Assembly (NCBI GenBank): GCA_029012085.1
Contig: JAQXLK010000156.1
Coordinates: 1-56,389 of the forward strand
Origin: Clostridiales bacterium
GTDB taxonomy: Bacteria > Bacillota > Clostridia > Lachnospirales > Lachnospiraceae
Direction of reading: 5' to 3'
DNA: 56,389 bases
Made by a program: the position numbers and the translations under genes. Shown piece by piece: positions 1,051-56,065 of the stretch. The first letter of the stretch is position 1. Each line of letters begins with the position of its first letter. Under the pieces are notes generated by a model, which was not told the origin of the DNA, did not search any database, and saw only the letters and a program-made list of their open reading frames with translations.

Positions 1051-1785
1051 TTCTGACTTTTCCTCTTTTTTACGCCGGCGTATCTGAAACTTCATTGCAA
1101 GATTCGCCCAAAATGTCTTCATTCGTCCACCGGTCAGGAACCATTTATACAAGTTATCAATCTTTAGCTTCTGAATTGATTCCGGCACTTCCGCTTCCGT
1201 CACAGCTTTATTATACAAAGTGTCGCCTGTAAATAAAATTATACCTGCGTTCATTTGACTGCGATATTCCTGCAATAAAGTTAACTGTTTCTTTTCCTGC
1301 AATGCTACCAGCAAAATATCCGGAGCTACCGAATTAATCTCATTCACTATATGATCTAAAGACTCTTCCTTTTCTGTCAGATATAACCCACTCAGTGTCA
1401 GCACTGGCCGTTTTTCATGAAAGTTCTCCTGTATGGAGATGAACTTCTCCTCATCTTCTGATACCAAAAGCAGCTCATATCCCATTTCAATGGCATAATC
1501 CAAAATCGAGTCTACATAACTTTCCATAAAAAAGGAGTCTCGCCGATGCCCTAAAACCTGATCAATACTTGCATTTACACTGGTTGTTGCCGGCAAAATC
1601 AATTCACTTTCCTCTACAACCGTTTTCCACTCTTGATTCGCCTGTAAAAGAAGCAGCGTCCCGCTATTTACAAAATAAACAACCCGACTGCCTTCTTCTT
1701 CTATATACTGCTTCGTCAAATCGCTGGCTTCTTTGGTAGATAAAATATCTACCGCAATATCCAGCAGTTGAACTCTATCCTTCAT
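1036..1785 (-). CDS. WecG/TagA/CpsF-family glycosyltransferase-like protein (divergent)
   Basis: 249-aa ORF. Its layout resembles TagA/WecG (VYFVN..., PDILLVAL, GIILFTGD, and a C-terminal basic amphipathic tail KWFLTGGRMKTFWANLAMKFQIRRRKK). The usual catalytic-looking motifs are not obvious by eye. Confidence 0.5.
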   Translation of the reverse strand: MKDRVQLLDIAVDILSTKEASDLTKQYIEEEGSRVVYFVNSGTLLLLQANQEWKTVVEESELILPATTSVNASIDQVLGHRRDSFFMESYVDSILDYAIEMGYELLLVSEDEEKFISIQENFHEKRPVLTLSGLYLTEKEESLDHIVNEINSVAPDILLVALQEKKQLTLLQEYRSQMNAGIILFTGDTLYNKAVTEAEVPESIQKLKIDNLYKWFLTGGRMKTFWANLAMKFQIRRRKKEEKSEKTDL

Positions 1786-1797
1786 ATAATACTCCTA

Positions 1798-2370
1798 TTA
1801 CTGAACAGTCGTATCGTTACTTCCTACTACAATATAAACTTCTACACCATCCAATGATACGCCGGATGATGGGGAATAGCTTCCTGAATCCGGTTTGCCA
1901 ACCTTTATCTCAGCATCCGCAAAATATTCAACTAAATCATTGCCCATGCCTTCTTCTGAAACATAAATTACAGTCTTTGTATTTGCACCAGCTGTATAGT
2001 TACCTGTCACAACCGATTCAAATCCTGCGCCACTTAACTTATTTGCCCAGCGTTTTGCCAATCCCGCTATACTTGTACTATTTAAAACAACAATCTTCTT
2101 ATCCGTAGATGAGATTTCTTCCAGCTCTGTCGTAGGTTCCTCCGTTGTAATCTCCTCCGTAGTCGCCTCTGTGGTAGCCTCCGTCGTTGTTACCTCTGTG
2201 GTAGCCTCTGTCGTTGTCGCTTCTGTCGTCACCTGTTCTTTTTCCTTTTTGTCTGCATTCACACGTACAACAAAAAATACAGCAAAACCAATAATTGTAA
2301 TCCCCATCAACACAACAAAGGAACGCAAAAACGCATCACCAAATACTTTAAGCATTGTCTTTTTATCCAT
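1798..2370 (-). CDS. Membrane-anchored LytR_C (cell envelope-related attenuator C-terminal) domain protein
   Basis: It has an N-terminal TM helix (FVVLMGITIIGFAVFFVV) and a Thr/Glu-rich repeat linker (TTEATTE...). The C-terminal pattern IVVLNSTSIAGLAKRWANKLSGAGF...VYIVVGSND is typical of LytR_C. Confidence 0.7.
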   Translation of the reverse strand: MDKKTMLKVFGDAFLRSFVVLMGITIIGFAVFFVVRVNADKKEKEQVTTEATTTEATTEVTTTEATTEATTEEITTEEPTTELEEISSTDKKIVVLNSTSIAGLAKRWANKLSGAGFESVVTGNYTAGANTKTVIYVSEEGMGNDLVEYFADAEIKVGKPDSGSYSPSSGVSLDGVEVYIVVGSNDTTVQ

Positions 2371-2536
2371 TTTATTTCCTCCTAAACTTCCCTATATCAT
2401 CTTTACCTTTATTCTTCCAGAAAGTCATTACGCAAAAATCCCACGTATTCTGTTAGTATAGCAGAAATATATTTGCATTTCAACCTTTTCATAGTATATA
2501 CTATATTCAAAAACCATTCATTACAGAGGAGGCACT

Positions 2537-3265
2537 ATGAATAAAACCGCTATCATTACAGGCGCTTCCAGCGGTATTGGCAGAGCCTGCGCTATTGAAT
2601 TAGCCAAATATTTTGATTATATTGTCATCAATTCTTTTCACAATAAAACAGAATTAGATAACACCTGCACCGCAGTACAACAGCTGGGTGCCACATGCCT
2701 TACATTTACTGGTGACATTGGTGATTTTGATTTCGTACATCAAATGATGACGGATGTATTGGCCCAATGTCCCCCTGTTGAACTACTCATAAATAACGCA
2801 GGAATCTCTTACGTTGGCTTACTATCCGATATGACCATCGAAGATTGGAACAACATTGTCCGTACCAATCTGACATCCGTATTCAACTGCTGCAACCAAA
2901 TTGTTCCTCATATGGTAAATAACAAATCCGGACATATCATTAACATTTCCTCCATGTGGGGATTAAGCGGCGCATCCTGTGAAGTTGCTTATAGTGCCAC
3001 AAAAGGTGGTGTAAATGCATTCACACAGGGATTAGCAAAAGAACTGGCACCCAGTGGAATACGTGTCAATGCCATTGCCTGTGGTGCAATCAATACCAGG
3101 ATGAACGCCTGCTTTGACCCAGCCGAACTGGCATCTTTATGTGAAGACATTCCTGCCTGCCGTCTCGGCACACCGGAAGAGATTGCTCAGGCGGTCGTTC
3201 ATCTATATCAAAGTCCATTTTATCTCACAGGCGAAATCATAAAAATAGACGGTGGCTATCTGTAA
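2537..3265 (+). CDS. SDR-family oxidoreductase (FabG-like)
   Basis: TGASSGIG cofactor motif, NNAG, catalytic YSATKGG (YxxxK); GGAGG RBS upstream. Confidence 0.9.
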   Translation: MNKTAIITGASSGIGRACAIELAKYFDYIVINSFHNKTELDNTCTAVQQLGATCLTFTGDIGDFDFVHQMMTDVLAQCPPVELLINNAGISYVGLLSDMTIEDWNNIVRTNLTSVFNCCNQIVPHMVNNKSGHIINISSMWGLSGASCEVAYSATKGGVNAFTQGLAKELAPSGIRVNAIACGAINTRMNACFDPAELASLCEDIPACRLGTPEEIAQAVVHLYQSPFYLTGEIIKIDGGYL

Positions 3266-3279
3266 AACCACCGTCTTTT
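3246..3279. terminator. Bidirectional intrinsic terminator between convergent genes
   Basis: Stem agacggtgg (3246-3254) pairs with ccaccgtct (3267-3275). It is flanked by an A-run upstream and a T-run downstream, and sits between the + SDR gene and the - NlpC/P60 gene. Confidence 0.6.
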
Positions 3280-3307
3280 TAATTTCTATATTTGTTTTTA
3301 TAGTTCA

Positions 3308-4063
3308 TTACTTAGATATAGCATATCTTGTAGTAGCATCATTCTGACCATCTTCCGGAACGGAATAAGTCTCTGTCTTAAGAACACGACCAGCACCAAG
3401 TGTTTTTCTATATTTGTAATCAGAAATCGTAATACCTGTTATTTCATTTGAAGCATGCACAACCTTCTCATTACCTATATACAGTGCTACGTGAGAACAA
3501 TTTCTCTTACTGCTGCCATAAAATATCAAATCACCCGGCTTTAACTTCTTCATCGAAACTTTCTTTACTGATTTTGAAGTCATCTGGCTTTGTGAATTAT
3601 GTGGCAGATTATATCCAAACTTCTTATATACTGACATTGTAAATCCTGAACAATCTGTTCCCTTTGTAAGACTAGAACCACCATATACGTACTTGTTACC
3701 AACATACTGTAACGCATAACCAACAACAGCCTTTTGTTCATCGGACATTTCAGAATAATCCGCAACTGATACCTTACATATGTATTTCTTACCATTCACT
3801 TTTGCAGTAACCTTCGCCATACCAACGCCTGTCGAAGTAACACCACCATTTTGGTCGACTTCCACAACATCCTCATTGGATGAAGACCACTTCACATTGC
3901 CTGTTGTATTCAAAACCTGAAGCTGTTCCACTTCGTCTAATCCTAAAACAAGCTTTGACTGATTAAGCTTAACTGCTCCCGCAGCGTCCACTTTTGTTGA
4001 AATCCCTGTTGCTAAACATATTACAAATAAGAATGTGAATAGTAATAAATTTCTATGCTTCAT
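3308..4063 (-). CDS. Secreted NlpC/P60 (C40) cell-wall peptidase with N-terminal Big_2-like Ig domain
   Basis: Signal peptide MKHRNLLLFTFLFVICLATG and a Big_2-like segment (LQVLNTTGNVKWSSSNEDVVEVD). The C40 core is GTDCSGFTMSVYKKFGYNLPHNSQSQ...GDLIFY...SHVALYIGNEKVVHA. Confidence 0.9.
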   Translation of the reverse strand: MKHRNLLLFTFLFVICLATGISTKVDAAGAVKLNQSKLVLGLDEVEQLQVLNTTGNVKWSSSNEDVVEVDQNGGVTSTGVGMAKVTAKVNGKKYICKVSVADYSEMSDEQKAVVGYALQYVGNKYVYGGSSLTKGTDCSGFTMSVYKKFGYNLPHNSQSQMTSKSVKKVSMKKLKPGDLIFYGSSKRNCSHVALYIGNEKVVHASNEITGITISDYKYRKTLGAGRVLKTETYSVPEDGQNDATTRYAISK

Positions 4064-4229
4064 AATAATACTTAATTCCTTCCAAGATTTTATTCCTTTT
4101 CAACATTCTCTATTTTAACATATTTTTTACGGATTTCAAGACTTTTTTGCACATTTTGTAACAATTCTGTAACAAACTTTCATTTTTTTACTCTTTTTTC
4201 TTTAGAAATTGTTAAGAAACCTACACATA

Positions 4230-4709
4230 TTATTCCGGATATACCAGTCGTTCTTCTGTAATACCGGTAAGCACCTCATCATAATATTTCTTTGCAACAT
4301 ACTTTGCCATTCCAAGGTTCATATCCAGATAATTACCACAATCACGAGCTGCTGCTCCCGGCACTTCTCCCTCAAAGTCCTTCATAAAAGCATACATCTC
4401 TGTTACCAACGGCACAACATCCTTTGATGTATAATCGCCTGCTAAGACCATGTAAAAACCTGTACGGCAGCCCATCGGTCCAAAATAAATTACTTTATCT
4501 TTATACTCTGCATGATTACGCAAAAAGGTTGCACCCAAATGCTCCAATGTATGAACCTCCGCAGTATTCATAACCGGTTCAAAGTTAGGTCTTGTCATTC
4601 TCAAATCAAAGGTAGTAATCACCTCACTGCCTACAGTATCCTTACGAGATACATAAACTCCCGGTAACAATGTTAAATGATTTACTGTAAAACTTGCAAT
4701 TTTTTCCAT
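4230..4709 (-). CDS. luxS: S-ribosylhomocysteine lyase LuxS
   Basis: 159 aa; metal-binding HTLEHL motif and conserved GPMGCRTGFY; adjacent to the mtnN/pfs gene. Confidence 0.93.
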   Translation of the reverse strand: MEKIASFTVNHLTLLPGVYVSRKDTVGSEVITTFDLRMTRPNFEPVMNTAEVHTLEHLGATFLRNHAEYKDKVIYFGPMGCRTGFYMVLAGDYTSKDVVPLVTEMYAFMKDFEGEVPGAAARDCGNYLDMNLGMAKYVAKKYYDEVLTGITEERLVYPE

Positions 4710-4749
4710 TCGTCGTCTCCTATCAATATATTTCTTATTCTGTTGCCTT

Positions 4750-5442
4750 TCACAGCCGGCTGCACAATTCTAAAAGTAATTTTACGGAATGTTCAATCGC
4801 CTTTGCTTCAAAAGTCGGATAATCCACACTTGCAGAATCATCTGCCTTATCCGAAATGGCACGGATGATAAGAAATGGCACATTATTCAGATATGCTGCA
4901 TGTGCAATTGCTGCCCCTTCCATTTCTGTACAATAGCCTGCAAAATTCTCCACCAGCCACTTTTTTTTCGCTTTGTCTGAAATAAACTGGTCACCACTTA
5001 CGACTCTTCCCTCAAACACCTTTACCTCCGGATTCACCTTTTCGCATGCTGCCTTAGCAACAGCACGAAGTTTAGCATCCGCCTCAAAAGATAACGTATC
5101 CATGCGTGGAATCTGCCCTACCGGATATCCAAAAGCCACTGCATCCATATCATGCTCTAATGTATCCGTCGAAAGTACGATATCTCCAATATCAATAGAA
5201 GCATTTAATGAACCTGCAATACCTGTGTTGATAATGGCATCTACATGGTATTCATCTATCAGAATCTGCGCACACATAGCTGCATTTACCTTACCAATTC
5301 CGGAACGCACTACAACAACAGGTTGTCCACTTAAAGTTCCCTTAAAAAATTCCATGGCAGCCTTTGTCATAACGTCAACGTTTTGCATCTGCTCCTTGAC
5401 CTTTGCCACCTCTTCATCCATTGCACCAATAATTCCTAACAT
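4750..5442 (-). CDS. mtnN: 5'-methylthioadenosine/S-adenosylhomocysteine nucleosidase
   Basis: 230 aa; MLGIIGAMDEEV start, TGIAGS and TEMEGAAIA motifs typical of Pfs/MtnN. Confidence 0.93.
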   Translation of the reverse strand: MLGIIGAMDEEVAKVKEQMQNVDVMTKAAMEFFKGTLSGQPVVVVRSGIGKVNAAMCAQILIDEYHVDAIINTGIAGSLNASIDIGDIVLSTDTLEHDMDAVAFGYPVGQIPRMDTLSFEADAKLRAVAKAACEKVNPEVKVFEGRVVSGDQFISDKAKKKWLVENFAGYCTEMEGAAIAHAAYLNNVPFLIIRAISDKADDSASVDYPTFEAKAIEHSVKLLLELCSRL

Positions 5443-7685: not shown

Positions 7686-8444
7686 TTATTTTTTAGAAAT
7701 GTTCTTCGAATTCTTTTTCGTTTCCTCAAGCAATTCAAATATATCCGTAAGTTCTTCTACAGACATCTTTGTATAATCCGCCAGCTGTTCTATTGTAGGG
7801 TCTTTTCCCATTTCCTCATTCAGAAGCTTCTTTGCAGCATGAACAAGGCTTACTTTTGCAAGCATTGCCTCCTCTGCTTCCATTTCACCATTTATTTCAG
7901 ATGCATATTTCATAATTCCCTCTTCCACAGCACTTCGTAAAACAGCCTCCACATCCTCACATTTTCCACTACCGCATAGCTGCTGCAAGGATATAAATAG
8001 TGCCATATTTCCTTCCTGCACTAAATCTTCTATATTAAGTTTCGGTGTCAAGTACCCCTTAGCCGATTCTAAAACCTTTGAAAGCCAGCAGCCGGAAAGT
8101 TTACCAATTGCGCTTTCATCACCCTGTAACAGGGCATTATACATCTCGATTTCTTCCGTTCGTGTATATTTAGGAAGTCCCTCTAACTCCTCAAGGTACA
8201 TCTTAAAAACCTGTGACTGCTGTTCATTAAGCTCTGGCTCTGCATCCTCCTGTTCCCCTTCACCTTCTGCTTCCTCTTCATGTGGTGTCAGCAAATATTC
8301 CAACACAATGTTTTCCTGCTCTTTTGAAAGTTCCATATCCTTAAAAAAGGACAAAATATCTTCTTTGGACATGGGTGTCTCTGCCACCTTCATAATTTCA
8401 GACACGCTTTTTACTGTTTCCATAAATGTATTCTGATCTACCAT
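7686..8444 (-). CDS. Sigma-70 (SigA)-like protein with region 1.1/1.2/2.1-2.2/3.0-like segments but no region 2.4 aromatic motif and no region 4
   Basis: 252 aa. VFKMYLEELEGLPKYTRTEEIEMYNALLQGDESA resembles region 1.2. LSKVLESAKGYL...IEDLVQEGNMALFISLQQL resembles regions 2.1-2.2. DPTIEQLADYTKMSVEELTDIFELLEE resembles region 3.0. The ORF ends there. Confidence 0.6.
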   Translation of the reverse strand: MVDQNTFMETVKSVSEIMKVAETPMSKEDILSFFKDMELSKEQENIVLEYLLTPHEEEAEGEGEQEDAEPELNEQQSQVFKMYLEELEGLPKYTRTEEIEMYNALLQGDESAIGKLSGCWLSKVLESAKGYLTPKLNIEDLVQEGNMALFISLQQLCGSGKCEDVEAVLRSAVEEGIMKYASEINGEMEAEEAMLAKVSLVHAAKKLLNEEMGKDPTIEQLADYTKMSVEELTDIFELLEETKKNSKNISKK

Positions 8445-8660
8445 CTTTTCACTCCTGACCTTTACATAATTACTATTGTTTGACTACACATAAAGGGTAT
8501 CTAACATAATAAAAAACATTACATCATTTTCCTTAGTGTTGCAAGAAAAAAAAGATATATTTTTCTCGCTTTTATTTAACATAAAGTGGAATTTTTGCTA
8601 TATTTATGATAGAATATTAGTAAGTATTACCATTCTTAACAGACTAAAAGGAGGCTACAT

Positions 8661-10613
8661 ATGAATACAAAAGAATCTTTAGTATTTACCAATGATAACT
8701 GCATCGGCTGTAACAAATGTATTAACTCCTGCAGTTGTATCGGCGCGAATGTTTCATGCGAAAAAGACGGAAAGAACCGAATTGATGTAAGTGGTGACAA
8801 ATGCATCGCCTGCGGTGCGTGTTTTGATGCTTGTGAACACAATGCCAGAGAATTCAGAGATGATACAGAAGAATTCTTTGCTGCATTAAAGAGGGGAGAA
8901 AAAATATCCGTCCTGATTGCACCTGCTTTCAAAGCAAATTATCCAAAGGAATATGAGAAGGTACTCGGTGGTCTGAAAGCTGCCGGTGTGAATCGCTTTA
9001 TCAGTGTATCATTTGGAGCAGATATTACGACCTGGGGCTACTTAAACTACATTGCCCAGAACAACTTTACAGGTGGAATTTCCCAGCCTTGCCCGGCTGT
9101 CGTCGGATATATCGAACGTTATACACCGGAATTAATTCCAAAACTCTTCCCGGTTCAGAGTCCTTTGATGTGTGCGGCTATTTACTGCCGTAAGGTACTG
9201 CATCTCACAGACAAGCTTGCCTTTATCAGTCCTTGTATTGCCAAGAAAATGGAGATTATGGAGCCTGAAAATGAAGGTCTTGTACAGTATAACGTAACCT
9301 TCGACCATTTAATGAAGTACGTAAGAGCAAATCACATTTCCGGTGACTTTTGTACCGATGAGATCGAATATGGTTTAGGCTCGATTTATCCAACTCCAGG
9401 CGGTCTTAAGGAAAATGTATACTGGTTCTTAGGTGAAAGTGTATTCATCCGTCAGATTGAAGGCGAAAAACACATGTATGAATGGCTTTTACATAATAAG
9501 GAACGAATTGAAAAAAGCCAGACACCATTCCTGTTCATTGATGCACTAAACTGTTCGAACGGCTGTATCTGTGGTACTGCAACAGAACCGGAGCTTTCCA
9601 ATACAGACAATGCACTCTATGCACTGCTTGAAATACGGGAACAGTCTAAAAAAGACAACAAAGCCAGTGCCTGGTCAAAGAAACTGACACCAGCTCAGAG
9701 ACTTAAAAAGTTTAACCAACAGTTTAAGGATCTGGATTTAAATGATTATTTAAGAACCTACACGGATATGTCTAATACTTACGTATGTAACAAGCCATCC
9801 AAAAATGAGCTTACATCCATCTACCATGATATGTTAAAGGATACCCCGGCGGAACAGTGTATTAACTGCACCTGCTGTGGATATAATACCTGTGAAGAAA
9901 TGGCTTTGGCCATTCATAATGGTTTTAACCGCAAAGAAAACTGTATCCACTATATCCGTAAACAGGTTGAAATTGAAAAAGAACATGCTCTTTCGCTGGC
10001 AAATGAGAACGAAGCAGAAAAGCACAAAGTACAACAGCAGCAAGAGATTATCATTAACACAGTTGCCCAGTTGAATGAGGAGTTCGATACTTTGCATGCT
10101 GCAATCGAAAACATGGCAGCCGGCAACAGCAATAATGCAACAGAGAGCAACGAAATTGCAGCCAGTGTGAATGAAATAAACACCTTCTGCAACCAGTTAA
10201 ATGAGTCCCTTTCCGGAATTAATAATCTGTTGGAAGAATTAACCGGCAATAATGAACAGGTGGTATCCATTGCTTCCCAAACAAATCTCTTAGCACTAAA
10301 TGCATCCATTGAAGCAGCAAGAGCAGGGGAAGCCGGCAGAGGCTTTGCCATCGTAGCAGACCAGATTAATGTACTTGCTACTGACTCCAGAAATACCGCT
10401 GCCCAAAGCAGTGAAAGCCAGTCAAAGATTTCTGGTTCTGTATCTTCCATTATCGAAGATACCCAGACGCTACTCAATACCATATCTGAAATCAACGAAA
10501 GAATTGAAGGATTTGCTGCTGTTACTGAAGAAATTGCTGCATCAACAGAACAAATTTCAGCAGCTACAGAGAATATGCGGCGCGAACTTTCCGAATTAGC
10601 TGCAATCAACTGA
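8661..10613 (+). CDS. Soluble methyl-accepting chemotaxis protein with N-terminal 2x[4Fe-4S] ferredoxin and [FeFe]-hydrogenase-like H-domain sensor
   Basis: [11 protein letters not shown] and [11 protein letters not shown] ferredoxin motifs. H-cluster-like motifs are [11 protein letters not shown] (L1-like, C144), [11 protein letters not shown] (L2-like, C192) and [13 protein letters not shown] (L3-like, C298/C302). An extra Cys cluster is [12 protein letters not shown]-x16-C (9858-9944). The MCP signalling core is [30 protein letters not shown]. No TM helix is present. Confidence 0.85.
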
Positions 10614-10649
10614 TATATCCTTATCACTACAATACCGATAACCACAAAA

Positions 10650-10690
10650 GGCTGTCCACGAGTTTTACACCTCGTGGGACAGCCTTTTTT
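10650..10690 (+). terminator. Intrinsic terminator of the hydrogenase-like MCP gene
   Basis: Stem ggctgtccacgag pairs with ctcgtgggacagcc (one bulge), followed by TTTTTT. Confidence 0.8.
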
Positions 10691-10782: not shown

Positions 10783-11406
10783 ATGCAGTATCCATTTAAA
10801 GTCGAACCTTTACCTTACGAATATGATGCCTTAGAACCTTATCTTTGCAAAGAAATCTTACATCTTCACCACGATAAACATTATGCAGGATATGTTTTAA
10901 AGCTAAATGAAATTTTAAAAAACTATCCCAACCTTCAAAACATGACATTAGACGAACTTCTAATTAAAACAGATGAGTTACCAAATGAAGCAAAAACTGC
11001 TATTCGTAATCAGGCCGGCGGTGTATATAACCATCAGCTCTATTTTGCCGGTATGAATAATGTAGAATGTGAAATACCCACAGACCGTTTAGCCCTTGCC
11101 ATCAACAGCTCCTTCGGCTCCATTGAGCAGTTTCGGGCAGAGCTTACTGCTGCCGCCGTTAATCAATTTGGTTCCGGCTATGCCTGGCTGATTTTAAGCA
11201 ACGGCAAACTGGAGATTATTGCAACTCCAAACCAGGACACTCCTCTTTCCCTAACCGTTACTCCCCTTTTATGTATTGATGTCTGGGAACATGCCTATTA
11301 TCTGCAATATCAAAACCGCCGTGCAGACTATGTAGAAAACTGGTTTAACCTGATTAACTGGGACTTTGTAGGCTCCCGTTATATGTCACTTATGAAAGAA
11401 AGTTAA
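10783..11406 (+). CDS. Fe/Mn-family superoxide dismutase
   Basis: LPYEYDALEPY, HHDKHH-type motif (LHHDKHY) and DVWEHAYYLQYQNRR; 207 aa. Confidence 0.95.
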   Translation: MQYPFKVEPLPYEYDALEPYLCKEILHLHHDKHYAGYVLKLNEILKNYPNLQNMTLDELLIKTDELPNEAKTAIRNQAGGVYNHQLYFAGMNNVECEIPTDRLALAINSSFGSIEQFRAELTAAAVNQFGSGYAWLILSNGKLEIIATPNQDTPLSLTVTPLLCIDVWEHAYYLQYQNRRADYVENWFNLINWDFVGSRYMSLMKES

Positions 11407-11484: not shown

Positions 11485-12702
11485 TCAAAGAAGTTTTCTT
11501 AAATCCGGCAGCATTTCAATGCTTCGTGCCAGGATTCCATTCATATAGGCAATGGCAATTCCATAATTTGTAAAAGGGATTGCCTGATCCATAGCGCATT
11601 TCATGCGGTAACGTACTTCTCTCTCATTCAGCATACAGGCACCGCAGTGAACCACCAGCTTGTATCCTGACAAATCATCGGGAAATTCCGTGCCCGAGCA
11701 AAATTCAAACTGCACTTCCTTTCCGGTATAGTTACGAATCCAGTTTGGAAGTTTCACAGTTCCAATATCCTCACACTGTCGGTGATGGGTACATCCCTCG
11801 GAAATCAGAATCCTATCTCCGTCCTGCAGCCGGTTCAGTGCCGTCACTCCCTTCACAGCAGTATCTAAATAACCTTTCCATCTTGCCATCAGAATAGAAA
11901 ATGAGGTTAACAAAATATCCTCCGGTACCTCTTTCGATACTCTTGCAAATGCCTGACTGTCCGTAATCACCATATACGGTTTTTCGCCTAATTTTTGAAG
12001 TGTTTCCTTCAATTCCGTATCTTTTACCACAACCGAAACCGCCCCTGCCTCTAAAATATCTCTTATCACCTGCTGCTGTGGCAGGATTAGTCTTCCCTTC
12101 GGTGCAGAAGAATCAATGGGAACTACCAGAACAATCAAATCCATAGGATGAATCAAATCTGCTACAATCTGAAAACGACTATCATCCGTTTTTACGAAAT
12201 GGGCAATCTTTTCCTTTAATTCGTTCACATTTTTCTTATTGATTGCACTGACAAAAATTGTGTTCCCATCCTCATCTTGTGTTTTGGAATAATACTCTTC
12301 CTTTAACCCCAAATCCACTTTATTATATACCACCAGATACGGAACTTCTTTTGCCTCAAATAACTTCATCAATTCCTTATCTTCCTTCCAAACCCCTTCT
12401 GTACCATCCACTACAAGAACAGCTATATCCGTCTTATTCAATACCTGCTTTGTTTTCTTAATTCGAAGTTCGCCCAATTCCCCTTCATCATCAATTCCCG
12501 GTGTATCTATAATCATAACCGGTCCCAGTGGCAAAAGTTCCATCGCTTTATAAACCGGGTCTGTTGTCGTTCCTTTTGTATCTGACACCACAGCAAGTTC
12601 CTGACCAGTAACTGCATTTACAAGGCTGGACTTTCCTGCATTTCTTCTTCCAAAAAATCCGATATGAATCCGATTACCGGATGGTGTATCATTAAAACCC
12701 AT
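11485..12702 (-). CDS. hydF: [FeFe]-hydrogenase H-cluster maturation GTPase HydF
   Basis: G1 GRRNAGKSSL, G3 DTPG and G4 NKVD. The C-terminal cluster-binding pattern is EGCTHHRQ...VVHCGACM (CxH...HCxxC). Confidence 0.9.
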   Translation of the reverse strand: MGFNDTPSGNRIHIGFFGRRNAGKSSLVNAVTGQELAVVSDTKGTTTDPVYKAMELLPLGPVMIIDTPGIDDEGELGELRIKKTKQVLNKTDIAVLVVDGTEGVWKEDKELMKLFEAKEVPYLVVYNKVDLGLKEEYYSKTQDEDGNTIFVSAINKKNVNELKEKIAHFVKTDDSRFQIVADLIHPMDLIVLVVPIDSSAPKGRLILPQQQVIRDILEAGAVSVVVKDTELKETLQKLGEKPYMVITDSQAFARVSKEVPEDILLTSFSILMARWKGYLDTAVKGVTALNRLQDGDRILISEGCTHHRQCEDIGTVKLPNWIRNYTGKEVQFEFCSGTEFPDDLSGYKLVVHCGACMLNEREVRYRMKCAMDQAIPFTNYGIAIAYMNGILARSIEMLPDLRKLL

Positions 12703-12939
12703 ATTGCAAATCCTCCTTTTATGCTTCCACTATACCACAACAAACACCCTGTGGCACAAAACTTTTTTCGTCTTTTTCCCGAATATTTATAATATTTTAA
12801 GATTTTTATTTTCTTTTTGTCACGAATTTATGCTATACTATGAGTACTTAATGAGCGCGAGTCCATGACGAAGCGCGAATTTAGTACGAATGTACACCCG
12901 AGACCTTGATATCATTACATAAAGAAATGAGGTATATAT

Positions 12940-14358
12940 ATGGACGAAAATGAAGAATTTACCGGTGAAGAATTCGGAGAATCTGGATTTTCAGAGTTCG
13001 AATCAATAGAACCTGAATTTTCACAACCAGAATTTACAGGAGGCGCTTTTACTGAATCTTCATTTATAGGAGTGGAAACAACAGAAACAGATTTTACTGC
13101 AACCAATTTTGCAGATGTGGGAGTTACCGGGACTGAATTTACCGCTGCAGAATTCCCAAAAGCTGAATTTACAAAAGATGACTCCTCGCAGGCAGAATTA
13201 ACAGAAGCCGAATTAAGACGGCGACGGGAAATAGCCCGCAGAAGGAAGCTTGCCGCAAGAGAGCGCCGCAGAAAAAGAAGACGACAGGAGGCAATTTTCC
13301 GCTGCAGTATTTTGCTGATTATCGTTATTTTACTAATTGTTGGAATTATCAAAGGAATTTCCGGCATATGTAAACATTTTCATAATAAGAAGGAAAGCGA
13401 CAAGGTATCGGAAAATATAATAGAACCAACATCTACGGAAGCTACAACAGAAGAATTCAAAGTAGATAAGTCTATTCTTGCTTTAGAAATGCCTGCCGAC
13501 CGGGATTCTGCCATTGCTGTAATTAAAGTACGTGCTGCCACTACCAAGGATACCGACCTTGCAAATATTTGTGATAATGCAGCAGTGTACTCAGACCGTG
13601 TACTGATGAACTTAGCAGCGAATCCGGAGTTAAAACAGTTTACGATGGATTATCTGACGAAAGTTAACATTGCCTACGATGGTGAATTTACGATGGATGT
13701 TTCCACTGATGAAGTTCCTTTACTGTTACAATACGATGAACAGTGGGGATATGCAGACTATGGTAACAATTTGCTGGCATATAGCGGATCTGCCCCAACC
13801 TGCCTTGCAATGGCTGCCACCTATCTTAAGAAGGATACTGCTTATAATCCAATTAAGATTGGAGATTTTGCTATGGCAAACAATTATTTAGACGAAAATA
13901 ACAAAACTTCATGGGATCTTATGACAAAAGGAACCGCCAAGCTTGGCCTTAGCTGCAACGAAATGTCTGTAAACGAAGGCAATATCAAGGCAAACTTAGA
14001 TGAAGGACGAGTAATTATATGCTGTATGCAGTCCGGTGATTTTACACAGGATGAACACTATATTGTAATCCGTGGTTACGATGGACATAATTTCCTTATA
14101 AACGACCCTGCCAGTCAGGCACGAAGCGAAATCACCTGGCCATTTGAACGATTGAGCTCTCAGATAAAAAATATGTGGGCAATTGGCAGCGACGGACCTG
14201 CTGTTACTCCAGAAGATAATACAGATAACGGAAATAATGATAACAGCACCACTATCAATACATCTGCCGGTGATTCAAGCAATGCTGACACAGGCAATGA
14301 TACTACTGGTACGAATAACAGCAATAACTCAACAAATAATAACAGTAATCCAAATTAA
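12940..14358 (+). CDS. Single-pass membrane protein with extracellular C39-like cysteine peptidase domain
   Basis: N-terminal acidic (D/E)F(T/S) repeats, an Arg-rich stretch, and a TM helix (ILLIIVILLIVGII). The C39_2-like core is LLLQYDEQWGYADYGNNLLAYSGSAPTCLAMAATYL...DEHYIVIRGYDGHNFLINDP. The tail is Asn/Thr-rich and low-complexity. Confidence 0.7.
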   Translation: MDENEEFTGEEFGESGFSEFESIEPEFSQPEFTGGAFTESSFIGVETTETDFTATNFADVGVTGTEFTAAEFPKAEFTKDDSSQAELTEAELRRRREIARRRKLAARERRRKRRRQEAIFRCSILLIIVILLIVGIIKGISGICKHFHNKKESDKVSENIIEPTSTEATTEEFKVDKSILALEMPADRDSAIAVIKVRAATTKDTDLANICDNAAVYSDRVLMNLAANPELKQFTMDYLTKVNIAYDGEFTMDVSTDEVPLLLQYDEQWGYADYGNNLLAYSGSAPTCLAMAATYLKKDTAYNPIKIGDFAMANNYLDENNKTSWDLMTKGTAKLGLSCNEMSVNEGNIKANLDEGRVIICCMQSGDFTQDEHYIVIRGYDGHNFLINDPASQARSEITWPFERLSSQIKNMWAIGSDGPAVTPEDNTDNGNNDNSTTINTSAGDSSNADTGNDTTGTNNSNNSTNNNSNPN

Positions 14359-14382
14359 AAAATTGCTGTATCACGAAACGAA

Positions 14383-14420
14383 GGGCAGAACCAAATCGGT
14401 TCTGCCCTTCTTGTGTTTCG
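14383..14420. terminator. Bidirectional intrinsic terminator between convergent genes
   Basis: Stem gggcagaacc (14383-14392) pairs with ggttctgccc (14398-14407), followed by a T-rich tail ttcttgtgtttcggtttt. There is an A-rich region on the other side. Confidence 0.7.
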
Positions 14421-14428
14421 GTTTTCTA

Positions 14429-17400
14429 CTATTCAACCGTAACCTTTACTTCCTTTGTATATCCGTTTCTAGCATATACATAGATAATACAACTGCCTTT
14501 TCCGACTGCCTTAATTACACCCTTCTTAGATACCGTTGCAACCTTCTTATTATCCGTTGCAAAACGTAACTCTCTTGCGTGTTTATTATTAAGCGGTTTC
14601 TTCTTTTTGTCAACTAAGACTGTCTTTGCTTTAACTTTAGCAGTTTTACCTACTTTTAATGTGTAGGATTTCTTTTTCAGTGTAATATTCTTGACATTTG
14701 TCTGCTTGAAGTTCTTTCTACCAACAATATGTGCCATAATCGTCTTACCCAGTGTCACCTTCTTACCGTTTACCACCTTGTAAGCGACAACATATACCTT
14801 GTAGTTCTTCTTTAAATCTAATTTCTTACCATTTACTTTCTTAATGGTTATCTTCGTCACTTTTCCACTCTTAACCTGATTCAGTGACTTTGAAGTAAAC
14901 TTCTTTCCACAATACTGTACATAGACGCGATAACCATCCGCACCGGCAACCTCACCCCACTGTACATTGATATTGCTTCCCGTCTGGCTTACCTTCAAGC
15001 CTGCATTCATTGCCAACTCATTCTTTTCCTGTTGCTTCTTGTATGCCGGGTCGGTCACCTTGGTTCTGCTGATTTCGCCCTTACATCCATCTACTACACA
15101 ATAGTACACTTCATCATGAGAGCCATCTGTTGTTTCAGTTGGAGCAACCTGGTTCTCAATAACAGGCTCTCCCTGTAGTTTCTTGTGATCTTCAATCGTT
15201 AAGATTCCAGCTTCCACTGTAATATTATAATTTGGATTAGCACTTTGGTCAACCGTTGCTGTAATCTTGTAGGTTCCGGCTGTCTCGCCCATCTCCCTAC
15301 TAAACGTAATACCCTTTAAATCATCATCCTTTGCCTTCGTACCATTTGTTACACTATAAGTGAACTTTGGATCTGCACTTCCGATATGCTTCGTAGCATT
15401 ATCCGGTTTAATTGTAATTTTTGCCGGATAAATGGTGAATGGTACCTTAGCACTATCCAATATATTACCATTATCATCCGAAACCTTTATATATGCTATA
15501 TATTCTCCGGCATCTTTTGGTGCCTCTGTTGTATAGCTGCTATCAGGCTCTTCCTTTTTCTTGTACTCTATTGTCAGAGTAGCATTGTCCGGTATATCCT
15601 GATAAACAGGTTTCTCTACTGCGTCGCCATCATAGTCTTTTGATAGATCATCAGGAATTACAATATCTGTTCCCTTCGTAATCTTCAATGTTCCCTTTTG
15701 AACGGTAATCTGATAATTCGGGTTCGCATTTTCATTTGCCGTTACTATAATATCATACTCTCCGGCTTCCGAATTCTGCGTTGCACTGCAGCTGCAGCTG
15801 ATTCCCTGCAATTCTTCACCGCTTTCCGGTTTTCCTTCTACCGTATATTCGTATGTTGTCGGAATTGTATCTCCCTTTTTCAGCGTTACATCCTTTGCTT
15901 TGACCGTTACCTGCTTTGGACGAATCGTAAATTCTACAGGAGCAGAAGTTTTATCTGCTTCACCTTCCTGGCCGGCAGGTATGCGTACACGCACTTCATA
16001 TTCTCCGGCATCCTTTGGTGCCTGCTCTGTATAGCTGCTATCCGGATCTCCCTTTTTCTTATACTCTGCTATAGGGGTAGTACCCTGTGGTTCACCGGTA
16101 TACGTTGGGGTTCCAACCGGTTGTCCATCGTAATCCTTTGAAAGATCACCAGTGATTACAATAGCTGCTCCATTTGTAATCTTCAATTTCCCATTTTGAA
16201 CAGTAATTTGATAATTCGGGTTAACATTTTTATTTGCCGTTACTATAATATCATACTCTCCAGCTTCCGAATTCTGCGTTGCACTGCAGCTGCAGCTAAT
16301 TCCCTGCAGCTCTGCACCATTTTCCGGTTTGCCTTCTACTGTATATTCGTATGTTGTCGGAACTGCATCTCCCTTTGTCAGCGTTACATCCTTTGCCTTA
16401 ACCGTAACCTGTGCTTTTTCAATCGTTGCAGTAACATTATCCGGATACATTACCTCATAGTTAGCAGGATTGGTTCCAGACTTTCCGGTTACCTCTGCAT
16501 TCGTTTTGTCAATCGTTACAGGCTTATTTGTTCCTGCATTTGGATTTTCAAATGTTCCTGTTACTCCGGTTATATTAAGTTCTTCTCCCTCAATTCCGGT
16601 AGGAACCCACGCAGTTACTTCTGCATTTTTTGTTCCATCATATGATTTATTTGGTACTGTTATAGTAGCCGTTACCTGCTTTGGACGAATCGTAAAGTCC
16701 ACAGGTTCAGAAGTTTGCGACGTTCCTCCTGCCTGCTCATCAAGTATGCGCACACGCACTTGATACTCTCCGGCATCCTTTGGTGGCTGCTCTGTATAGC
16801 TGCTATCCGGATCTCCCTTTTTCTTATACTCTGCTATAGGAGTAGCACCCTGTGGTTCACCGGTATATGTTGGATTCCCTACCGGTTGTCCATCATAATC
16901 TTTTGATGGAGCATTGGTTATCCTCAAACCTGTATCATCTGCCGGATAAATCTCAAAGTTATCACTTGCTACATAAGCGTTATACAAATCTGTTTCTGGA
17001 AATGTTGCCGTTACTTTATAACTTCCTACTGCTGTCGGCTTTCCCCTTAATTCATTTCCACTGGCATCATAATATACAAGGCTGACATTTTCTGTGCCGT
17101 TTGTTCTACTCGAATACTCAACATTATAAGCCGTACCGAAACGACTATCTGGTGCCTCAACAACCCCAGTACCGTTTCCTTTTTCTACTGTTAACTTTGC
17201 AGTTGCTTCTCCTTTTTTGTAGTCACCTAGTGCTTCTGTACTGACCTTGATGACAAACTCACCAACACTCGTAACTGTTAGTTTGTTACCAGTACCTATG
17301 GTTCCCTCACCTGTTTTCTGTATTATACTATAAGAAGCTACACCTGCATTCCCATCTAATGTAAATAAAGAAGTAATATCAATCGTATTCCCATCATATC

Positions 17401-28293: not shown

Positions 28294-30030
28294 TTATAAT
28301 CTTGTAAAGACTGCAGTCTCCTTCTGAAGATCGGATGCAATCTCCTGGTTCTCGTCCATACGATCGCTGATACGCTCCATATCCGTAACAAGCATCTGGG
28401 TGCTCTCTGCTGCACCGGTTACGCCCTCAACACCATCTTCAATGGCAAGAGTAATTGTGTTGATTGAGTTCGCAATCTGGTCAACCTCAATCTTCAAGTC
28501 GTCTGTCTGAGCCTTAAACTCATTCATAACATTCTCCACATAAGTAGCTGCATTCTTATACTGAACACCACTATCTACAAAGTTACGGAAACCTGGCAAA
28601 ATAGATTCGTTCATATAGTCTGCCATATCCGCTGAACTTCCTGAAAGATTATGAACTGCCTGAATAACCACTTCATTAATCTCCTGAATCCGGTTCGCGG
28701 TCTCACGGCTGGAATCTGCCAGCTGACGAATCTCGTCTGCAACGACCGCAAATCCTTTACCAGCTTCACCGGCTCTTGCTGCCTCAATTGATGCATTTAA
28801 TGCAAGTAAATTTGTCTGTGCAGAAATATTTAAGATATCATTTGTCAAATCATTAACCTGATCCACACTCTTTGAATCATTAATTGCCTGCTCTAATACG
28901 AGCATCATCTCATTCACACGCTTTGCAGTCTCTTCCATGTTATTACGTGCTTCATTCTCTAACTGGTCAGCCTGCTGCTTCATCTCCATAGAATACTCAT
29001 TCATAGAAGATGACTTATCTGCAATACGATTCACTTCTTCCCTTACCGCCTCTGCGTTCTGATTAATAATACCGGTTGAATTTGCAACCTCTGTCATTGT
29101 TGCAGAAAGCTCCTCGGTAAGAGCAGACAAATCAGATACATTATCATTAGAGGTCTTAACACTGTCCATAACTTCTCCAACCACCTGATCCATTTTCTGG
29201 GAGTTGCTGGTAATAAGCTTCAGAATCTCCTGTAATTTCTCCATAAATGTATTGATACCAGTACCTAGAGATGCAATCTCTGTATTCCTTGGAATACTTA
29301 CACGCTGAGTCAAATCACCCTCACGCATATCAATTCCATCAATGATATTCTTAATCTCTTTCTGTGTTTTCGAAAGTGGATGAATGACTAAAGCAACCAC
29401 ACTAAGTGCTGCAAGCGCTAATGCTGCCACACTGAGAATAATGGTAATTACACTAGATGCAATAGATGACTTATACACCTTTGCAAGTGTCTTCTTTGCT
29501 GCATCTGCATTCTCATTCACATCTGCCTGAATCGCATCAATTGCCGCCTGCATGGAATTCGAATACTCTGTAATGGCTCCATTCGCCAAAGCATAGGCTT
29601 CTTCATTCTTTCCTCCGGCACTGTATGCCATTAAATTTGCTATCTCGTATTTCAATCCTTCGTAATTCTCTACTAACTGGCTATAGCTCTCCTTATTCTC
29701 TTCCGTCACATAAGATGTTTCAAAATTGTCTAATGCTTCCTCTAAAATGACTTCCTCCGCACGAATGCTATCTACCAGGCTTAACATGGTATCGAAATCA
29801 GTAGCCACAATATGAGAAAGCGCTAACTGATGAATCAGCAACGTTTCCTTCTGAACATCACCTAAATCAGCTACACAATTCATATAGCCATTTGCTATCC
29901 GTGTTGCATTCTTATTCACCTTTCTGATATTACTCACTGCACCAAGGCTTGACAGAATACATACGATTCCAAGAATAACTACCGGAATCAAAATAACCAG
30001 TTTGGAACTAAAACTTCTTTTATTCTTCAT
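28294..30030 (-). CDS. Transmembrane methyl-accepting chemotaxis protein (helical-bundle periplasmic sensor, HAMP, signalling domain)
   Basis: The start is at the ATG at 30030 ([31 protein letters not shown]). A second TM helix is at [26 protein letters not shown]. The signalling core is [37 protein letters not shown]. Confidence 0.92.
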
Positions 30031-30043
30031 CTGTCTGCCCTCC

Positions 30044-31348
30044 CTATTGTACAGTTGATGCGGTAATATCCGCAACTAACTCATCCATCAATTCCTGCAA
30101 ATCTTTCTTGTCCGGATTGCCTTCTGCCATCTTAATACCAAATGCTTCACTCGGTGCCCAATAATTATTCCCCACACGTTGAAGCACACCATATTCTGCC
30201 TGATCAATAACCGCCTGTAAGGCAGGAACATTCTTCATCTCCTCTGACTCTGCAGCCTTGATATTGGATGGTCCCTGACTTCTCTCTATAAGGCGCAGCT
30301 TCTGATTCTCCTCGTTAGTGAGCCAATCAGCAAGTTTCAACGCCCAATCTTTATGTGCTGAATAGTAATTCACACCCAGCATCTTATATCCGGTAAAGGA
30401 TGCCATCTGTACCTGCTGGTCTGCAACCGTATAAGTTGGAAGTTTTACCGCTCCATAGTCATCTCCCCATACCTTCCGAATCTCTACTTCATTCCATACA
30501 CCACTGATGCAGGCAACCACTTCTCCACTCTTAATCTTTTCAATCACCTCACCGTCCATTGTGCTAGTAAAGCCTTTCCTTTTTGAAATATCTAAAAGTG
30601 CCTGTGCAACATCCACACCCTTAATGCTTCCATCTGTTGCATTCCATGTACAGTAATTCGTAACACCGTCTTCATTCAAGCCAAATTCAAGCCCTGTATT
30701 ACCAAAGAAGGAATACAAAAACCAGCCGGAAGCCCATTGCATGCTAAACTTTTTATTTGCCTTCTCTGCAACATCTAAAATCCCATCTAAGGTCTTCACA
30801 TCCTCTTCCGATAAATACTCCTTATTATAATAGAGGAAATATCCATTGTCTGCTGTCATTGGATATGCATAAATGGTACCATTAACAGACGCAGCATCGA
30901 CAGCACCCTCTAAGTTAGCAGCTCTTACCTCATCCTGATTATCTACGGGTGCCAACGCACCACCAGCTACCATCGCCGCCAGCTGATCATCCGCAAACGA
31001 AAATACATCTGCACCACCGTGGATATCTCCCAACAGTTTATCCCTCGTTACATCATCTGTATTCTCAACCAATGTAATCTCAAATTCCGCTTCATCCTTG
31101 TACTCTTCCTTAAAGCTCTCAATCATCTTATTCAGCAAATCATAGCTTGCAGTATCTGCCCAGATAGAAAGTTCAATTACACCTTCTTCCTTCTGAGAGT
31201 CCTCTTCAGCTGTCTCATCTCCCGTCGTCTCCTCTGCAGCCGCCTCTTCTCCAGCAGGCTCCGCTGTCTTGTTTCCTTTACCACAGCCAATTACTGTTGC
31301 ACCAAGTGCAACCGCAAGTAAAAACCCCACAAGATATTTTTTCCTCAT
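30044..31348 (-). CDS. Family-1 extracellular solute-binding lipoprotein (MalE/sugar-binding-like), no cognate permease genes adjacent
   Basis: The start is at the ATG at 31348 ([25 protein letters not shown], lipobox VIGC; GAGG RBS 8 nt upstream). An acidic linker follows, then SBP_bac_1-like patterns ([23 protein letters not shown]). Confidence 0.85.
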
Positions 31349-38914: not shown

Positions 38915-38931
38915 CAAAGGAGGTGTCTGCC

Positions 38932-39372
38932 TTGAAAATAACAGTAGATATTAATGAAAAATTAGATGATACCGAAATTAGCATTCATTGTAAACAAATA
39001 ACACCAAATATCGAAAATATAATTGCAATGTTGCAAATGATGAATCAGCAGCTGGTTGTTACAAAAAATAATGAGAATTATCTTTTGGATGTAAGTAAAA
39101 TTTTGTACATAGAAGCGCTGGAACGAAAAACATTTGTATATGCCAATGACGATATCTATGAATCCAAATTAAAGCTATACGAAATGGAAGAACGACTGTG
39201 CCATAGCGGATTTCTCAGAGTCAGTAAATCCTGCCTGGTTCATTTGAAGTTTATTAAGTCTATAAAAAATGATGTGGAAAGAAAGCTGCGTCTGACTTTG
39301 GAAAACGGAGAACAGCTTATGGTATCAAGGCAATATGCTGAAGAAATAAAAAAGAGAATGGGGGTTATATAG
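38932..39372 (+). CDS. LytTR-family DNA-binding protein (no receiver domain)
   Basis: The LytTR core is ILYIEALERKTFVYANDDIYESKLKLYEMEERL...GFLRVSKSCLVHLKFIKSI. The TTG at 38932, 8 nt after AGGAGG, is preferred over the ORF-track GTG at 38923. Confidence 0.8.
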   Translation: MKITVDINEKLDDTEISIHCKQITPNIENIIAMLQMMNQQLVVTKNNENYLLDVSKILYIEALERKTFVYANDDIYESKLKLYEMEERLCHSGFLRVSKSCLVHLKFIKSIKNDVERKLRLTLENGEQLMVSRQYAEEIKKRMGVI

Positions 39373-39846
39373 ATGATAAACAGACATACAATATTTGATT
39401 ACTTTACACAAATTATGATTATTTGGGGAATCTCCGTTTTAAGTCTTTGCTTTTTTTGTATTTTGTTTGGTGATGCCGCAAATGGATATTCTTCTATTTT
39501 CCAATTAGGCAGTGCAGGAATTTCTATTTTTACCTTAATACAATTTTTCGCATTGGCAGTCATCATTACTAGCTTAAAATTTCTGTTTTTTACAGATATG
39601 TTAATAAAAAATCTAAGTACCGTCATGAGAAGTGTCATGATGTTTGCATGCATTATTTTGTCAATTGCTTTATTCGCTGCTGTTTTTCAGTGGTTTCCTG
39701 TAAATCAGATAAAGCCATGGCTTATGTTTTTTATCTGTTTTTTTGTATGTGCATCCGTCAGTGTTCTCGTATCTGTACTGAAAGAAAAAAGTGATAATCG
39801 AAAAATGCAGGAAGCATTGGAACGTCTGAAAGAAGAGGAATTGTAA
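39373..39846 (+). CDS. DUF3021-like four-helix membrane protein (LytTR partner)
   Basis: 157 aa with four hydrophobic helices. Its start abuts the LytTR stop codon, matching the second cassette. Confidence 0.65.
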   Translation: MINRHTIFDYFTQIMIIWGISVLSLCFFCILFGDAANGYSSIFQLGSAGISIFTLIQFFALAVIITSLKFLFFTDMLIKNLSTVMRSVMMFACIILSIALFAAVFQWFPVNQIKPWLMFFICFFVCASVSVLVSVLKEKSDNRKMQEALERLKEEEL

Positions 39847-53253: not shown

Positions 53254-53373
53254 CTGTATGCTCACACTTCCTAAATCATTTAATTTTCTATACACCTAGT
53301 CTTCTCAATTTTTATAAACCGCAAAAAATCATTCTTTTTATTCTTATAGCAATTCCTATGCAGTACAACCAAA

Positions 53374-55114: not shown

Positions 55115-55127
55115 TATCTCGACTCCT

Positions 55128-55961: not shown

Positions 55962-56065
55962 TCTGGTTCCTCTTCTCTGTCCACAAAAGGACAATCTTGT
56001 ACCTATTCATTATACTTGCAAACATATGAAATAACAACCAAAACTTTCGCACTTTGTGAATTAAT

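Follow-up and report, generated by a model that had tools for sequence, protein, structure and literature searches.

The stretch analysed here, which we call the window, is the whole of contig JAQXLK010000156.1 (56,389 nucleotides, positions 1 to 56,389 of the forward strand) from the Clostridiales bacterium assembly GCA_029012085.1, placed in the Lachnospiraceae. Its subject is one gene, at 8661..10613, whose product joins a sensor related to [FeFe] hydrogenases to the signalling domain of a methyl-accepting chemotaxis protein (MCP). At the level of domains, a hydrogenase-like sensor fused to an MCP hairpin, this description is very nearly certain. The gene, its signals and the parts of its product, numbered in amino acids (aa), are as follows.

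8661..10613, forward strand: sensor-MCP gene, a single long open reading frame (ORF) of 650 aa; product soluble, an [FeFe]-hydrogenase sensor of the HydS type with an MCP signalling domain joined to it.
8576..8604, forward strand: promoter-like site (TTAACA, 17-nt spacer, TATATT, extended TG), a consensus match only, at 10 of 12 positions.
8647..8654, forward strand: strong ribosome-binding site AAAGGAGG, 6 nt 5' of the ATG at 8661, by direct reading.
8682..8849, forward strand: N-terminal ferredoxin-like domain for two [4Fe-4S] clusters, aa 8-63 (C14/17/20/24 and C48/51/54/58).
8901..9575, forward strand: H-domain, aa 81-305 (Pfam Fe_hyd_lg_C).
9081..9095, forward strand: L1 motif, S141-Q-P143-C144-P145.
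9228..9254, forward strand: L2 motif, S190-P-C192-I-A-K195-K-M-E198.
9540..9575, forward strand: L3 motif, D294-A-L296-N-C298-S-N-G-C302-I-C-G305.
9861..9947, forward strand: C-terminal [4Fe-4S]-type motif, C403-x2-C406-x4-C411-x16-C428, PF04060-like, aa 401-429.
9945..10067, forward strand: junction or linker helix, aa 429-469, which leaves the last cluster ligand and enters the MCP bundle (a helix from residue 429 in the AlphaFold2 model).
10068..10604, forward strand: short-class MCP signalling hairpin, aa 470-648 (Pfam, profile alignment, Foldseek).
10311-10346, forward strand: MCP tip motif, aa 551-562, canonical, its core residues invariant in the family.
10646..10690, forward strand: intrinsic terminator, a hairpin of 16 pairs and one bulge with a U6 run behind it, 33 nt 3' of the stop codon.

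The terminator hairpin (folding energy -26.6 kcal/mol, z = -7.3) was found by folding, its bulged stem having been overlooked by a simple terminator scan. Promoter-like sites in the region upstream of the gene showed no excess over shuffles. With a ribosome-binding site and a promoter-like site on one side and a terminator hairpin on the other, 8661..10613 looks like a single-gene transcription unit. The most hydrophobic 19-residue stretch of the protein reached only 1.24 on the Kyte-Doolittle scale, so that it has no transmembrane segment, and Pfam detected no PAS domain in the 650 residues at E ≤ 0.01.

Pfam placed Fe_hyd_lg_C (PF02906) on aa 81-305 (E 3e-28, 99 bits against a cut-off of 22) and MCPsignal (PF00015) on aa 534-647 (E 1e-20, 75 bits against a cut-off of 35). 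Several Fer4 dicluster models fell on aa 8-63, most of them under their curated cut-offs and PF00037 alone above its own. TIGR04105 spans aa 20-308, and the NCBIfam models for catalytic hydrogenases (groups A and B1) scored far under their cut-offs. The match of PF04060 ('putative Fe-S cluster') to aa 401-429 was weak (E 0.0025, under cut-off); the same family was matched in 30 of 60 relatives. An extra cysteine inside this last motif, Cys405, is nearly invariant in close relatives only.

The initial annotation had described two ferredoxin CxxCxxCxxxC motifs, four cysteines at the positions of the H-cluster ligands, replacement of the first cysteine of TSCCP (SQPCP in this protein), a further four-cysteine cluster from C403 to C428, and a complete MCP domain fused directly with neither transmembrane helix nor PAS domain. 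All five were borne out. The ferredoxin motifs lie at the residues listed above, C144, C192, C298 and C302 fall on the ligands of a catalytic hydrogenase in a profile alignment, and Pro143 occupies the position of the proton-relay cysteine. The last motif, found where it had been reported, is typical of HydS-type sensors (PMC8163306). The MCP domain has a complete tip and is of a short length class.

The alignment was made with hhalign, using a profile of 63 homologues, to CpI of Clostridium pasteurianum (reference sequence identical over 574/574 residues to PDB 1c4a_A/3c8y). It reached 99% probability (E 7e-18, 325 columns, query 5-330 against CpI 137-529), a match far beyond chance, and independent HMMER alignments to HydA of T. 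maritima and HydA1 of T. kivui gave the same registers in all three motifs (for L3, the 8a6t alignment). Every ligand column was aligned, which confirms the ligand positions of the initial annotation. The correspondences are:

F-cluster ligands: CpI C147/150/153/157 and C190/193/196/200 are C14/17/20/24 and C48/51/54/58.
H-cluster ligands: CpI C300, C355, C499 and C503 (the bridging cysteine) are C144, C192, C298 and C302.
Conserved pocket residues: CpI K358, E361, P231 and P324 are K195, E198, P88 and P168.
Proton-relay cysteine, replaced: CpI C299 is P143.
Rest of the group A proton path, replaced: CpI E279, E282 and S319 are Y127, Y130 and F163.
Rest of the group A proton path, lost: CpI R286 falls in a gap.
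Pocket methionines, replaced: CpI M353 and M497 are S190 and L296.
Pocket residue, replaced: CpI F417 is Y243.

Further changes in the pocket relative to CpI are Q325L, G418P and a GGG after L3 that reads GTA. All 16 cluster cysteines are invariant in the 63 close homologues. Among 127 diverse sensors, the representatives of 50%-identity clusters, each of the 16 was kept in at least 126 and the four of the C-terminal motif in all 127; the equivalents of K358 and E361 (K195 and E198) were kept in 120 and 124, respectively. The relay position was proline in 99 of these sensors and cysteine in none, the M353 position serine in 107 and the M497 position leucine in 116. In published statistics for sensory sequences, about 10% have Pro at the C299 position and about 32% have Ser at that of M353 (PMC10055695), and the pocket is thus a known variant.

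By profile, by fold, and by its four cysteines together with the K358 and E361 equivalents, the product of 8661..10613 contains an [FeFe]-hydrogenase H-domain. It lacks both the TSCCP motif and the E279/E282/S319/R286 path of catalytic group A and instead carries the motifs of the HydS proteins (groups C and D), namely two N-terminal [4Fe-4S] motifs, no group A path, and Cx2Cx4Cx16C. In the literature these three features mark the subclasses M2f (group C) and M2e (group D) (PMC8163306). An AlphaFold2 model built on the 63-sequence alignment had a mean predicted local distance difference test (pLDDT) score of 67, with values below 50 in residues 1-64 and 294-315, and served for fold assignment and secondary structure, not for pocket geometry. 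Its best Foldseek matches in the PDB were all [FeFe] hydrogenases (E down to 4e-11).

A pocket altered at so many positions (C299P, M353S, M497L, Q325L, G418P, GGG to GTA) might hold a [4Fe-4S] cluster only and no [2Fe] subcluster, in which case the protein would be a degenerate Nar1-like scaffold or sensor of Fe-S status. The M497L variant of CpI, as cited in PMC10055695, fails to integrate [2Fe] properly, and Leu296 sits at that position here. TamHydS of Thermoanaerobacter mathranii naturally has Leu at the same position, yet binds the cofactor (PMC8163306). TamHydS and TmHydS of Thermotoga maritima, the two characterised relatives with similarly altered pockets, both incorporate [2Fe]; lacking C299, they nonetheless carry the H-cluster and show slow H2 turnover (PMC8163306, PMC10055695). 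In the present protein the bridging cysteine C302, the cyanide-anchoring lysine K195 and E198 are all conserved, and maturase genes are linked to the sensor gene: hydF adjoins it, and hydE, hydF and hydG adjoin orthologues. A site of the Nar1 type with no 2Fe pocket, which the initial annotation had held up against its own reading, found no support in sensors that keep the K358 and E361 equivalents in 120/127 and 124/127 cases, and we regard such a protein as improbable. In the region of the alternative proton path proposed for TamHydS (E252, E289, S249, D265), the conserved acidic residues of the present protein are E251, E267 and D294.

With four Fe-S sites, the protein could also be a redox or energy-taxis sensor, in which ferredoxin-like clusters would track the reduced-ferredoxin pool and their redox state would set the output of the receptor; H2 would act indirectly at most, or the H-cluster would serve to vent electrons. 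Two of the sites are ferredoxin clusters of the surface type, homologues of those through which electrons enter CpI, and the domain around the C-terminal cluster is akin to PF04060 of the RnfB/CFeSP type. In TamHydS the C-terminal cluster is not reduced by H2 (PMC13104023), so that this cluster might read something other than H2. A complete H-cluster site would be superfluous in a sensor of this kind, yet the equivalents of C503, K358 and E361 are conserved across the family, and maturase genes adjoin the gene (hydF here, hydEFG at the related loci L065 and L066). We consider a redox sensor unlikely, without dismissing it.

The C-terminal part of the protein is an MCP by its conserved tip and its antiparallel helical hairpin (PF00015 and a Tm14-like structure). 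The MCPsignal match covers positions 42-148 of the 172-position Pfam model and is complete at the tip. Following the tip residue Glu557 are 93 residues (about 13 heptads), compared to 156 in the transmembrane MCP encoded at 28294-30075. Two methylation-like consensus sites (619 and 626; E622/E623 and E630/Q631) lie in the C-terminal arm only. The hairpin profile aligned gap-free to 184 residues of Tm14, a soluble receptor of T. maritima, and the tail of the AlphaFold2 model matched Tm14 (3g67) with a Foldseek TM-score of 0.76 on the target.

The window contains two other MCP genes, one at 28294-30075 (reverse strand) for a 4HB-HAMP transmembrane-type receptor with a long arm (the 156 residues given above) and one at 47600-49060 (reverse strand) for a receptor with a C-terminal CZB zinc-binding domain. 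The bundle lengths of both differ from that of the HydS-MCP.

The hairpin may feed a non-flagellar chemosensory pathway, for example one for adhesion, pili or development. No che or flagellar genes are present in the window, the bundle is unusually short relative to the 44H-like membrane MCP, and sister sensors, described below, control enzymes of cyclic di-GMP (c-di-GMP) metabolism. The tip motif is canonical, however, and the relatives include Roseburia, Agathobacter, Lachnospira and Butyrivibrio, which are flagellated genera. We give an output of this kind little credence.

Three genes lie close to the sensor gene.

10783-11406, forward strand: Fe/Mn superoxide dismutase (SOD) gene (Pfam), between the sensor gene and hydF.
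11485..12702, reverse strand: hydF, H-cluster maturation GTPase (TIGR03918, 585 bits against a cut-off of 326), convergent and not co-transcribed with the sensor gene.
7686-8444, reverse strand: gene for a 252-aa protein with weak similarity to sigma-70 regions 2/3 and an acidic N-terminal half, divergent; kept upstream of the sensor gene only in the closest relatives (loci L001, L006 and L036).

The hydF gene lies 870 bp beyond the sensor gene, with the SOD gene in between. Among 84 related loci, hydF lay within 10 kb of the sensor gene in 3; roughly 0.6 would be expected by a rough hand estimate that takes hydF as single-copy and the genome as about 3 Mb long. At L065, hydE-hydG-hydF start 480 bp downstream of the orthologue on the same strand (12391-16289), and at L066 they lie 5 kb upstream of it (1122-4969). 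The initial annotation had allowed that a genome with no hydE or hydG would count against it. This concern is partly answered by hydF in the window and by the hydE-hydG-hydF sets that adjoin orthologues in two lineages; hydE and hydG, like che and flagellar genes, were not found in the 56 kb, nor was a second hydrogenase-like gene.

The SOD gene immediately downstream invites the idea of a sensor of O2 or other oxidants, whereby cluster damage would generate a repellent signal and a strict anaerobe would leave oxic zones. TamHydS does react fast with O2 to a defined product (PMC8163306). The adjacency, however, occurs in only 1 of the 84 loci, being confined to this genome and its 95% relative L001, and irreversible cluster damage is ill-suited to an adapting gradient sensor. 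An oxidant sensor is accordingly a poor candidate in our estimate, and we rejected the SOD adjacency as a functional link because it is lineage-specific.

A conserved operon was likewise rejected, as loci of about 67% identity have no flanking genes in common with this one. The upstream genes for the sigma-like protein, a response regulator and a kinase are common only to L001, L006 and L036. In L036, an 88% relative, a MraW gene directly follows the sensor gene, which marks the stretch from 10.7 to 27 kb as variable. The segment 14429-22678 (about 8.5 kb), missing from the otherwise syntenic L001, holds genes for two putative surface proteins, of 1492 aa (MBG_2/YDG) and 884 aa (fn3), and a small helix-turn-helix gene.

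Relatives of the fused protein are numerous. A word-indexed search returned more than 6,600 homologue matches; all 120 of the 120 listed carry Fe_hyd_lg_C and MCPsignal in about 650 aa, and those named among the matches listed come from Lachnospiraceae or Clostridium metagenome-assembled genomes (MAGs). Their labels vary ('methyl-accepting chemotaxis protein', 'transcriptional regulator', '4Fe-4S binding protein'). In GTDB representative genomes, 79 related loci were found, all in gut or rumen Lachnospiraceae-type organisms, including Lachnospira, Butyrivibrio, Pseudobutyrivibrio, Agathobacter, Roseburia and Acetatifactor; the closest belong to 'Clostridium sp.' MAGs (87-88% identity). The matches in Roseburia and Butyrivibrio are likewise MAGs, and Lachnospiraceae bacterium A4, YSD2013 and Bacterium D16-51 are also among the carriers. 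The gut anaerobe proposed as host in the initial annotation agrees with the origin of all 79.

The sensor is not restricted to MCPs. An exhaustive HMMER search with residues 1-440 yielded 3,072 clusters at E ≤ 1e-3 and 681 at E ≤ 1e-30, and the outputs that follow the sensor were tallied in the best 150 cluster representatives (P0121-P0270), which are 34-76% identical to the query sensor. An MCP hairpin was present in 42, HisKA/HATPase in about 43, often with receiver and Hpt domains, GGDEF or GGDEF-EAL in 38 and HD-GYP in 2; 24 had no output or were fragmentary. Stand-alone sensors exist among the relatives (e.g. P0184 and P0240). The representatives nearest to the query sensor (64-67% identity over about 435 residues) were hybrid kinases and GGDEF proteins, not MCPs. 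On a rough neighbour-joining tree of the 127 sensors, output class switched at least 42 times, where shuffled labels averaged 66 switches and never gave fewer than 56, and the MCP-linked members did not form one clade but were interleaved with kinase- and GGDEF-linked ones.

Similarity between output classes spans the fourth cluster motif, ends about 8 residues past C428 ('NCIxYxK') and gives way to class-specific sequence. The C403-C428 motif is the last element common to all classes, with the junction at 9945-9970 of the window; in kinase relatives the H-box lies about 38 residues downstream of it. Since all outputs are joined at one junction after C428, the C-terminal Fe-S domain and the helix leaving C428 appear to be the coupling point. 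That the same sensor drives histidine kinases, c-di-GMP enzymes and HD-GYP proteins in relatives argues that the HydS module is a generic signal-input domain. None of the HydDB [FeFe] subgroups, according to the literature searched, is a c-di-GMP- or HD-GYP-linked variant, and the diguanylate-cyclase-linked class of HydDB contains [NiFe] hydrogenases only.

A broader proposal can be built on these fusions, which we put forward tentatively and would not yet bet on. HydS with the Pro/Ser/Leu pocket may be a portable H2-input domain that Lachnospiraceae have repeatedly re-plugged, at one junction, into all the major bacterial outputs: chemotaxis, two-component phosphorelays, c-di-GMP synthesis and breakdown, and HD-GYP. 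The partial pressure of H2 would then be a master cue for the behaviour of fermenters in gut and rumen, and the present protein a true H2 chemoreceptor, the first with an organometallic hydrogenase cofactor as its ligand site.

For the protein itself, we favour a cytoplasmic chemoreceptor that uses a detuned H-cluster as its ligand site. HydE, HydF and HydG would install the [2Fe] subcluster in the sensor H-domain. H2 would bind the detuned H-cluster and be turned over slowly, as in TmHydS and TamHydS. A conformational change of the H-cluster and protein might pass via the C-terminal Fe-S domain into the junction helix, and the change in the helix would alter control of the CheA kinase at the hairpin tip, so that swimming would be biased relative to H2. 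H2 as the signal and flagellar behaviour as the output are what we infer from this architecture, and the two further MCP genes in the window support a chemotaxis context. We put the full chain from H2 through CheA to swimming at about 0.55.

Several observations weigh against this chemoreceptor. No experimental or biochemical work on MCP-linked members, on H2 chemoreceptors or on hydrogenase domains in chemoreceptors was found in the literature searched. The result for the TamHydS C-terminal cluster speaks against signalling by reduction of that cluster, and its authors write that cluster reduction as the central signalling step appears refuted and that the cluster may be structural (PMC13104023). 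Leu296 recalls the CpI M497L variant, the AlphaFold2 model is mediocre and falls below a pLDDT of 50 around the L3 motif, and the membrane MCP in the window has a far longer hairpin. Finally, hydE, hydG, che and flagellar genes are missing from the 56 kb, and the neighbourhood of the sensor gene is not conserved.

Other parts of the window were annotated in passing. LuxS and MTA/SAH nucleosidase genes, an autoinducer-2/activated methyl cycle pair, are adjacent at 4230-5442 (reverse strand) and are kept together in the three closest relatives. Two back-to-back modules at 38923-41392 (forward strand) and 41490-44132 (reverse strand) each comprise a small LytTR DNA-binding protein, a small unannotated ORF and ABC-transporter genes. 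At 39847-40697 (forward strand) an ABC-transporter ATPase is broken into two ORFs that lie in different frames; the first ORF stops just after an A6 run whose end is at about 40224 and which is a plausible slip site, and the split gene is either a frameshifted pseudogene or the product of a homopolymer sequencing error. A low-GC (0.30-0.35) defence islet at 51430-55994 (reverse strand) contains a DpnII-type endonuclease together with one DNA methyltransferase of the N6_N4 and one of the D12 class; the AAA_15/AAA_21 ATPase next to them matches DUF3226 weakly. Searches of the window for Rfam families and tRNAs gave none.

To the question of how sensory [FeFe] hydrogenases transfer their signal, an MCP fusion brings a built-in output. 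The MCP-fused form is a convenient model for the coupling because the output is in the same polypeptide and can be read simply, from swimming bias or from the kinase activity of CheA. Fermentation in gut and rumen has H2 as its central currency, and rumen genomes and transcriptomes are rich in sensory group C hydrogenases (PMC6776011). If receptors of this kind do guide motile butyrate producers along H2 gradients, the view of syntrophic assembly with methanogens and acetogens would change. The window contributes a typical, clean case in which a maturase gene adjoins, and its value lies not in surprise but in offering a model for the problem of HydS signalling.

Among characterised proteins, CpI (group A1; PDB 3C8Y/4XDC) is homologous from the FS4A and FS4B clusters through the whole H-domain. 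All 12 of its cysteine ligands in this region are kept, as are K358, E361, P231 and P324, whereas the N-terminal [2Fe-2S] and FS4C domains, the proton pathway (C299, E279, E282, S319, R286) and both pocket methionines are missing, and a C-terminal cluster and a signalling domain have been added. Tm14 (TM0014, PDB 3G67/3G6B) resembles the other end of the protein in being a soluble receptor with a short hairpin. Its 213-residue chain corresponds to roughly the hairpin alone, with a Foldseek sequence identity of just 24-25%, whereas the present protein places a metallo-sensor of about 430 residues in front.

The comparison with the two HydS proteins rests on residue identities quoted in the papers rather than on direct alignment. 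TmHydS (group C, M2f; PMC10055695) shares the two N-terminal [4Fe-4S] clusters, the C-terminal four-cysteine cluster, an H-domain without the C299 relay and the group A path, and a tyrosine at the F417 position (Y223, here Y243). Its pocket has Ala at the relay (A131), Gly at M353 and Ser at M497, where the present protein has Pro, Ser and Leu. Beyond its C-terminal cluster TmHydS has a PAS domain, the mark of M2f; in our protein, which has none, the MCP coiled coil starts directly after C428 and leads into the hairpin. TamHydS (group D, M2e; PMC8163306, PMC10407848, PMC13104023) shares the pair of pocket substitutions, Ser at M353 and Leu at M497 (here Ser190 and Leu296), and likewise has three accessory cluster motifs and no PAS domain. 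It differs in having Ala137 at the relay and E122 and K126 as the equivalents of E282 and R286 (PMC10407848), compared to Pro143, Tyr130 and no counterpart to R286. TamHydS ends after the C-terminal cluster with no output domain, and the MCP output of the present protein sets it apart from the stand-alone M2e class, defined also by Ser at M353.

The nearest described system is group C2 of the HydDB classification of [FeFe] hydrogenases (Sondergaard, Pedersen & Greening 2016), entered as 'Chemotactic (putative)' via methyl-accepting chemotaxis proteins, alongside the histidine-kinase-linked C1 and the phosphatase-linked C3 (PMC5037454). The initial annotation had mentioned a chemotaxis-linked subgroup that was predicted but not known to be characterised, and the C2 entry is that subgroup, with no experimental work on it found in the literature searched. 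C2 and the protein share the link between a sensory hydrogenase and an MCP and the proposed route from H2 sensing to chemotaxis, and we know of no difference between them. Here the two partners are fused in one polypeptide, membership being by match to the description and not by the classifier. The protein of 8661..10613 thus belongs to a class, extremely common among Lachnospiraceae of the gut and rumen, that was predicted as far back as 2016, and the idea it embodies is not new.

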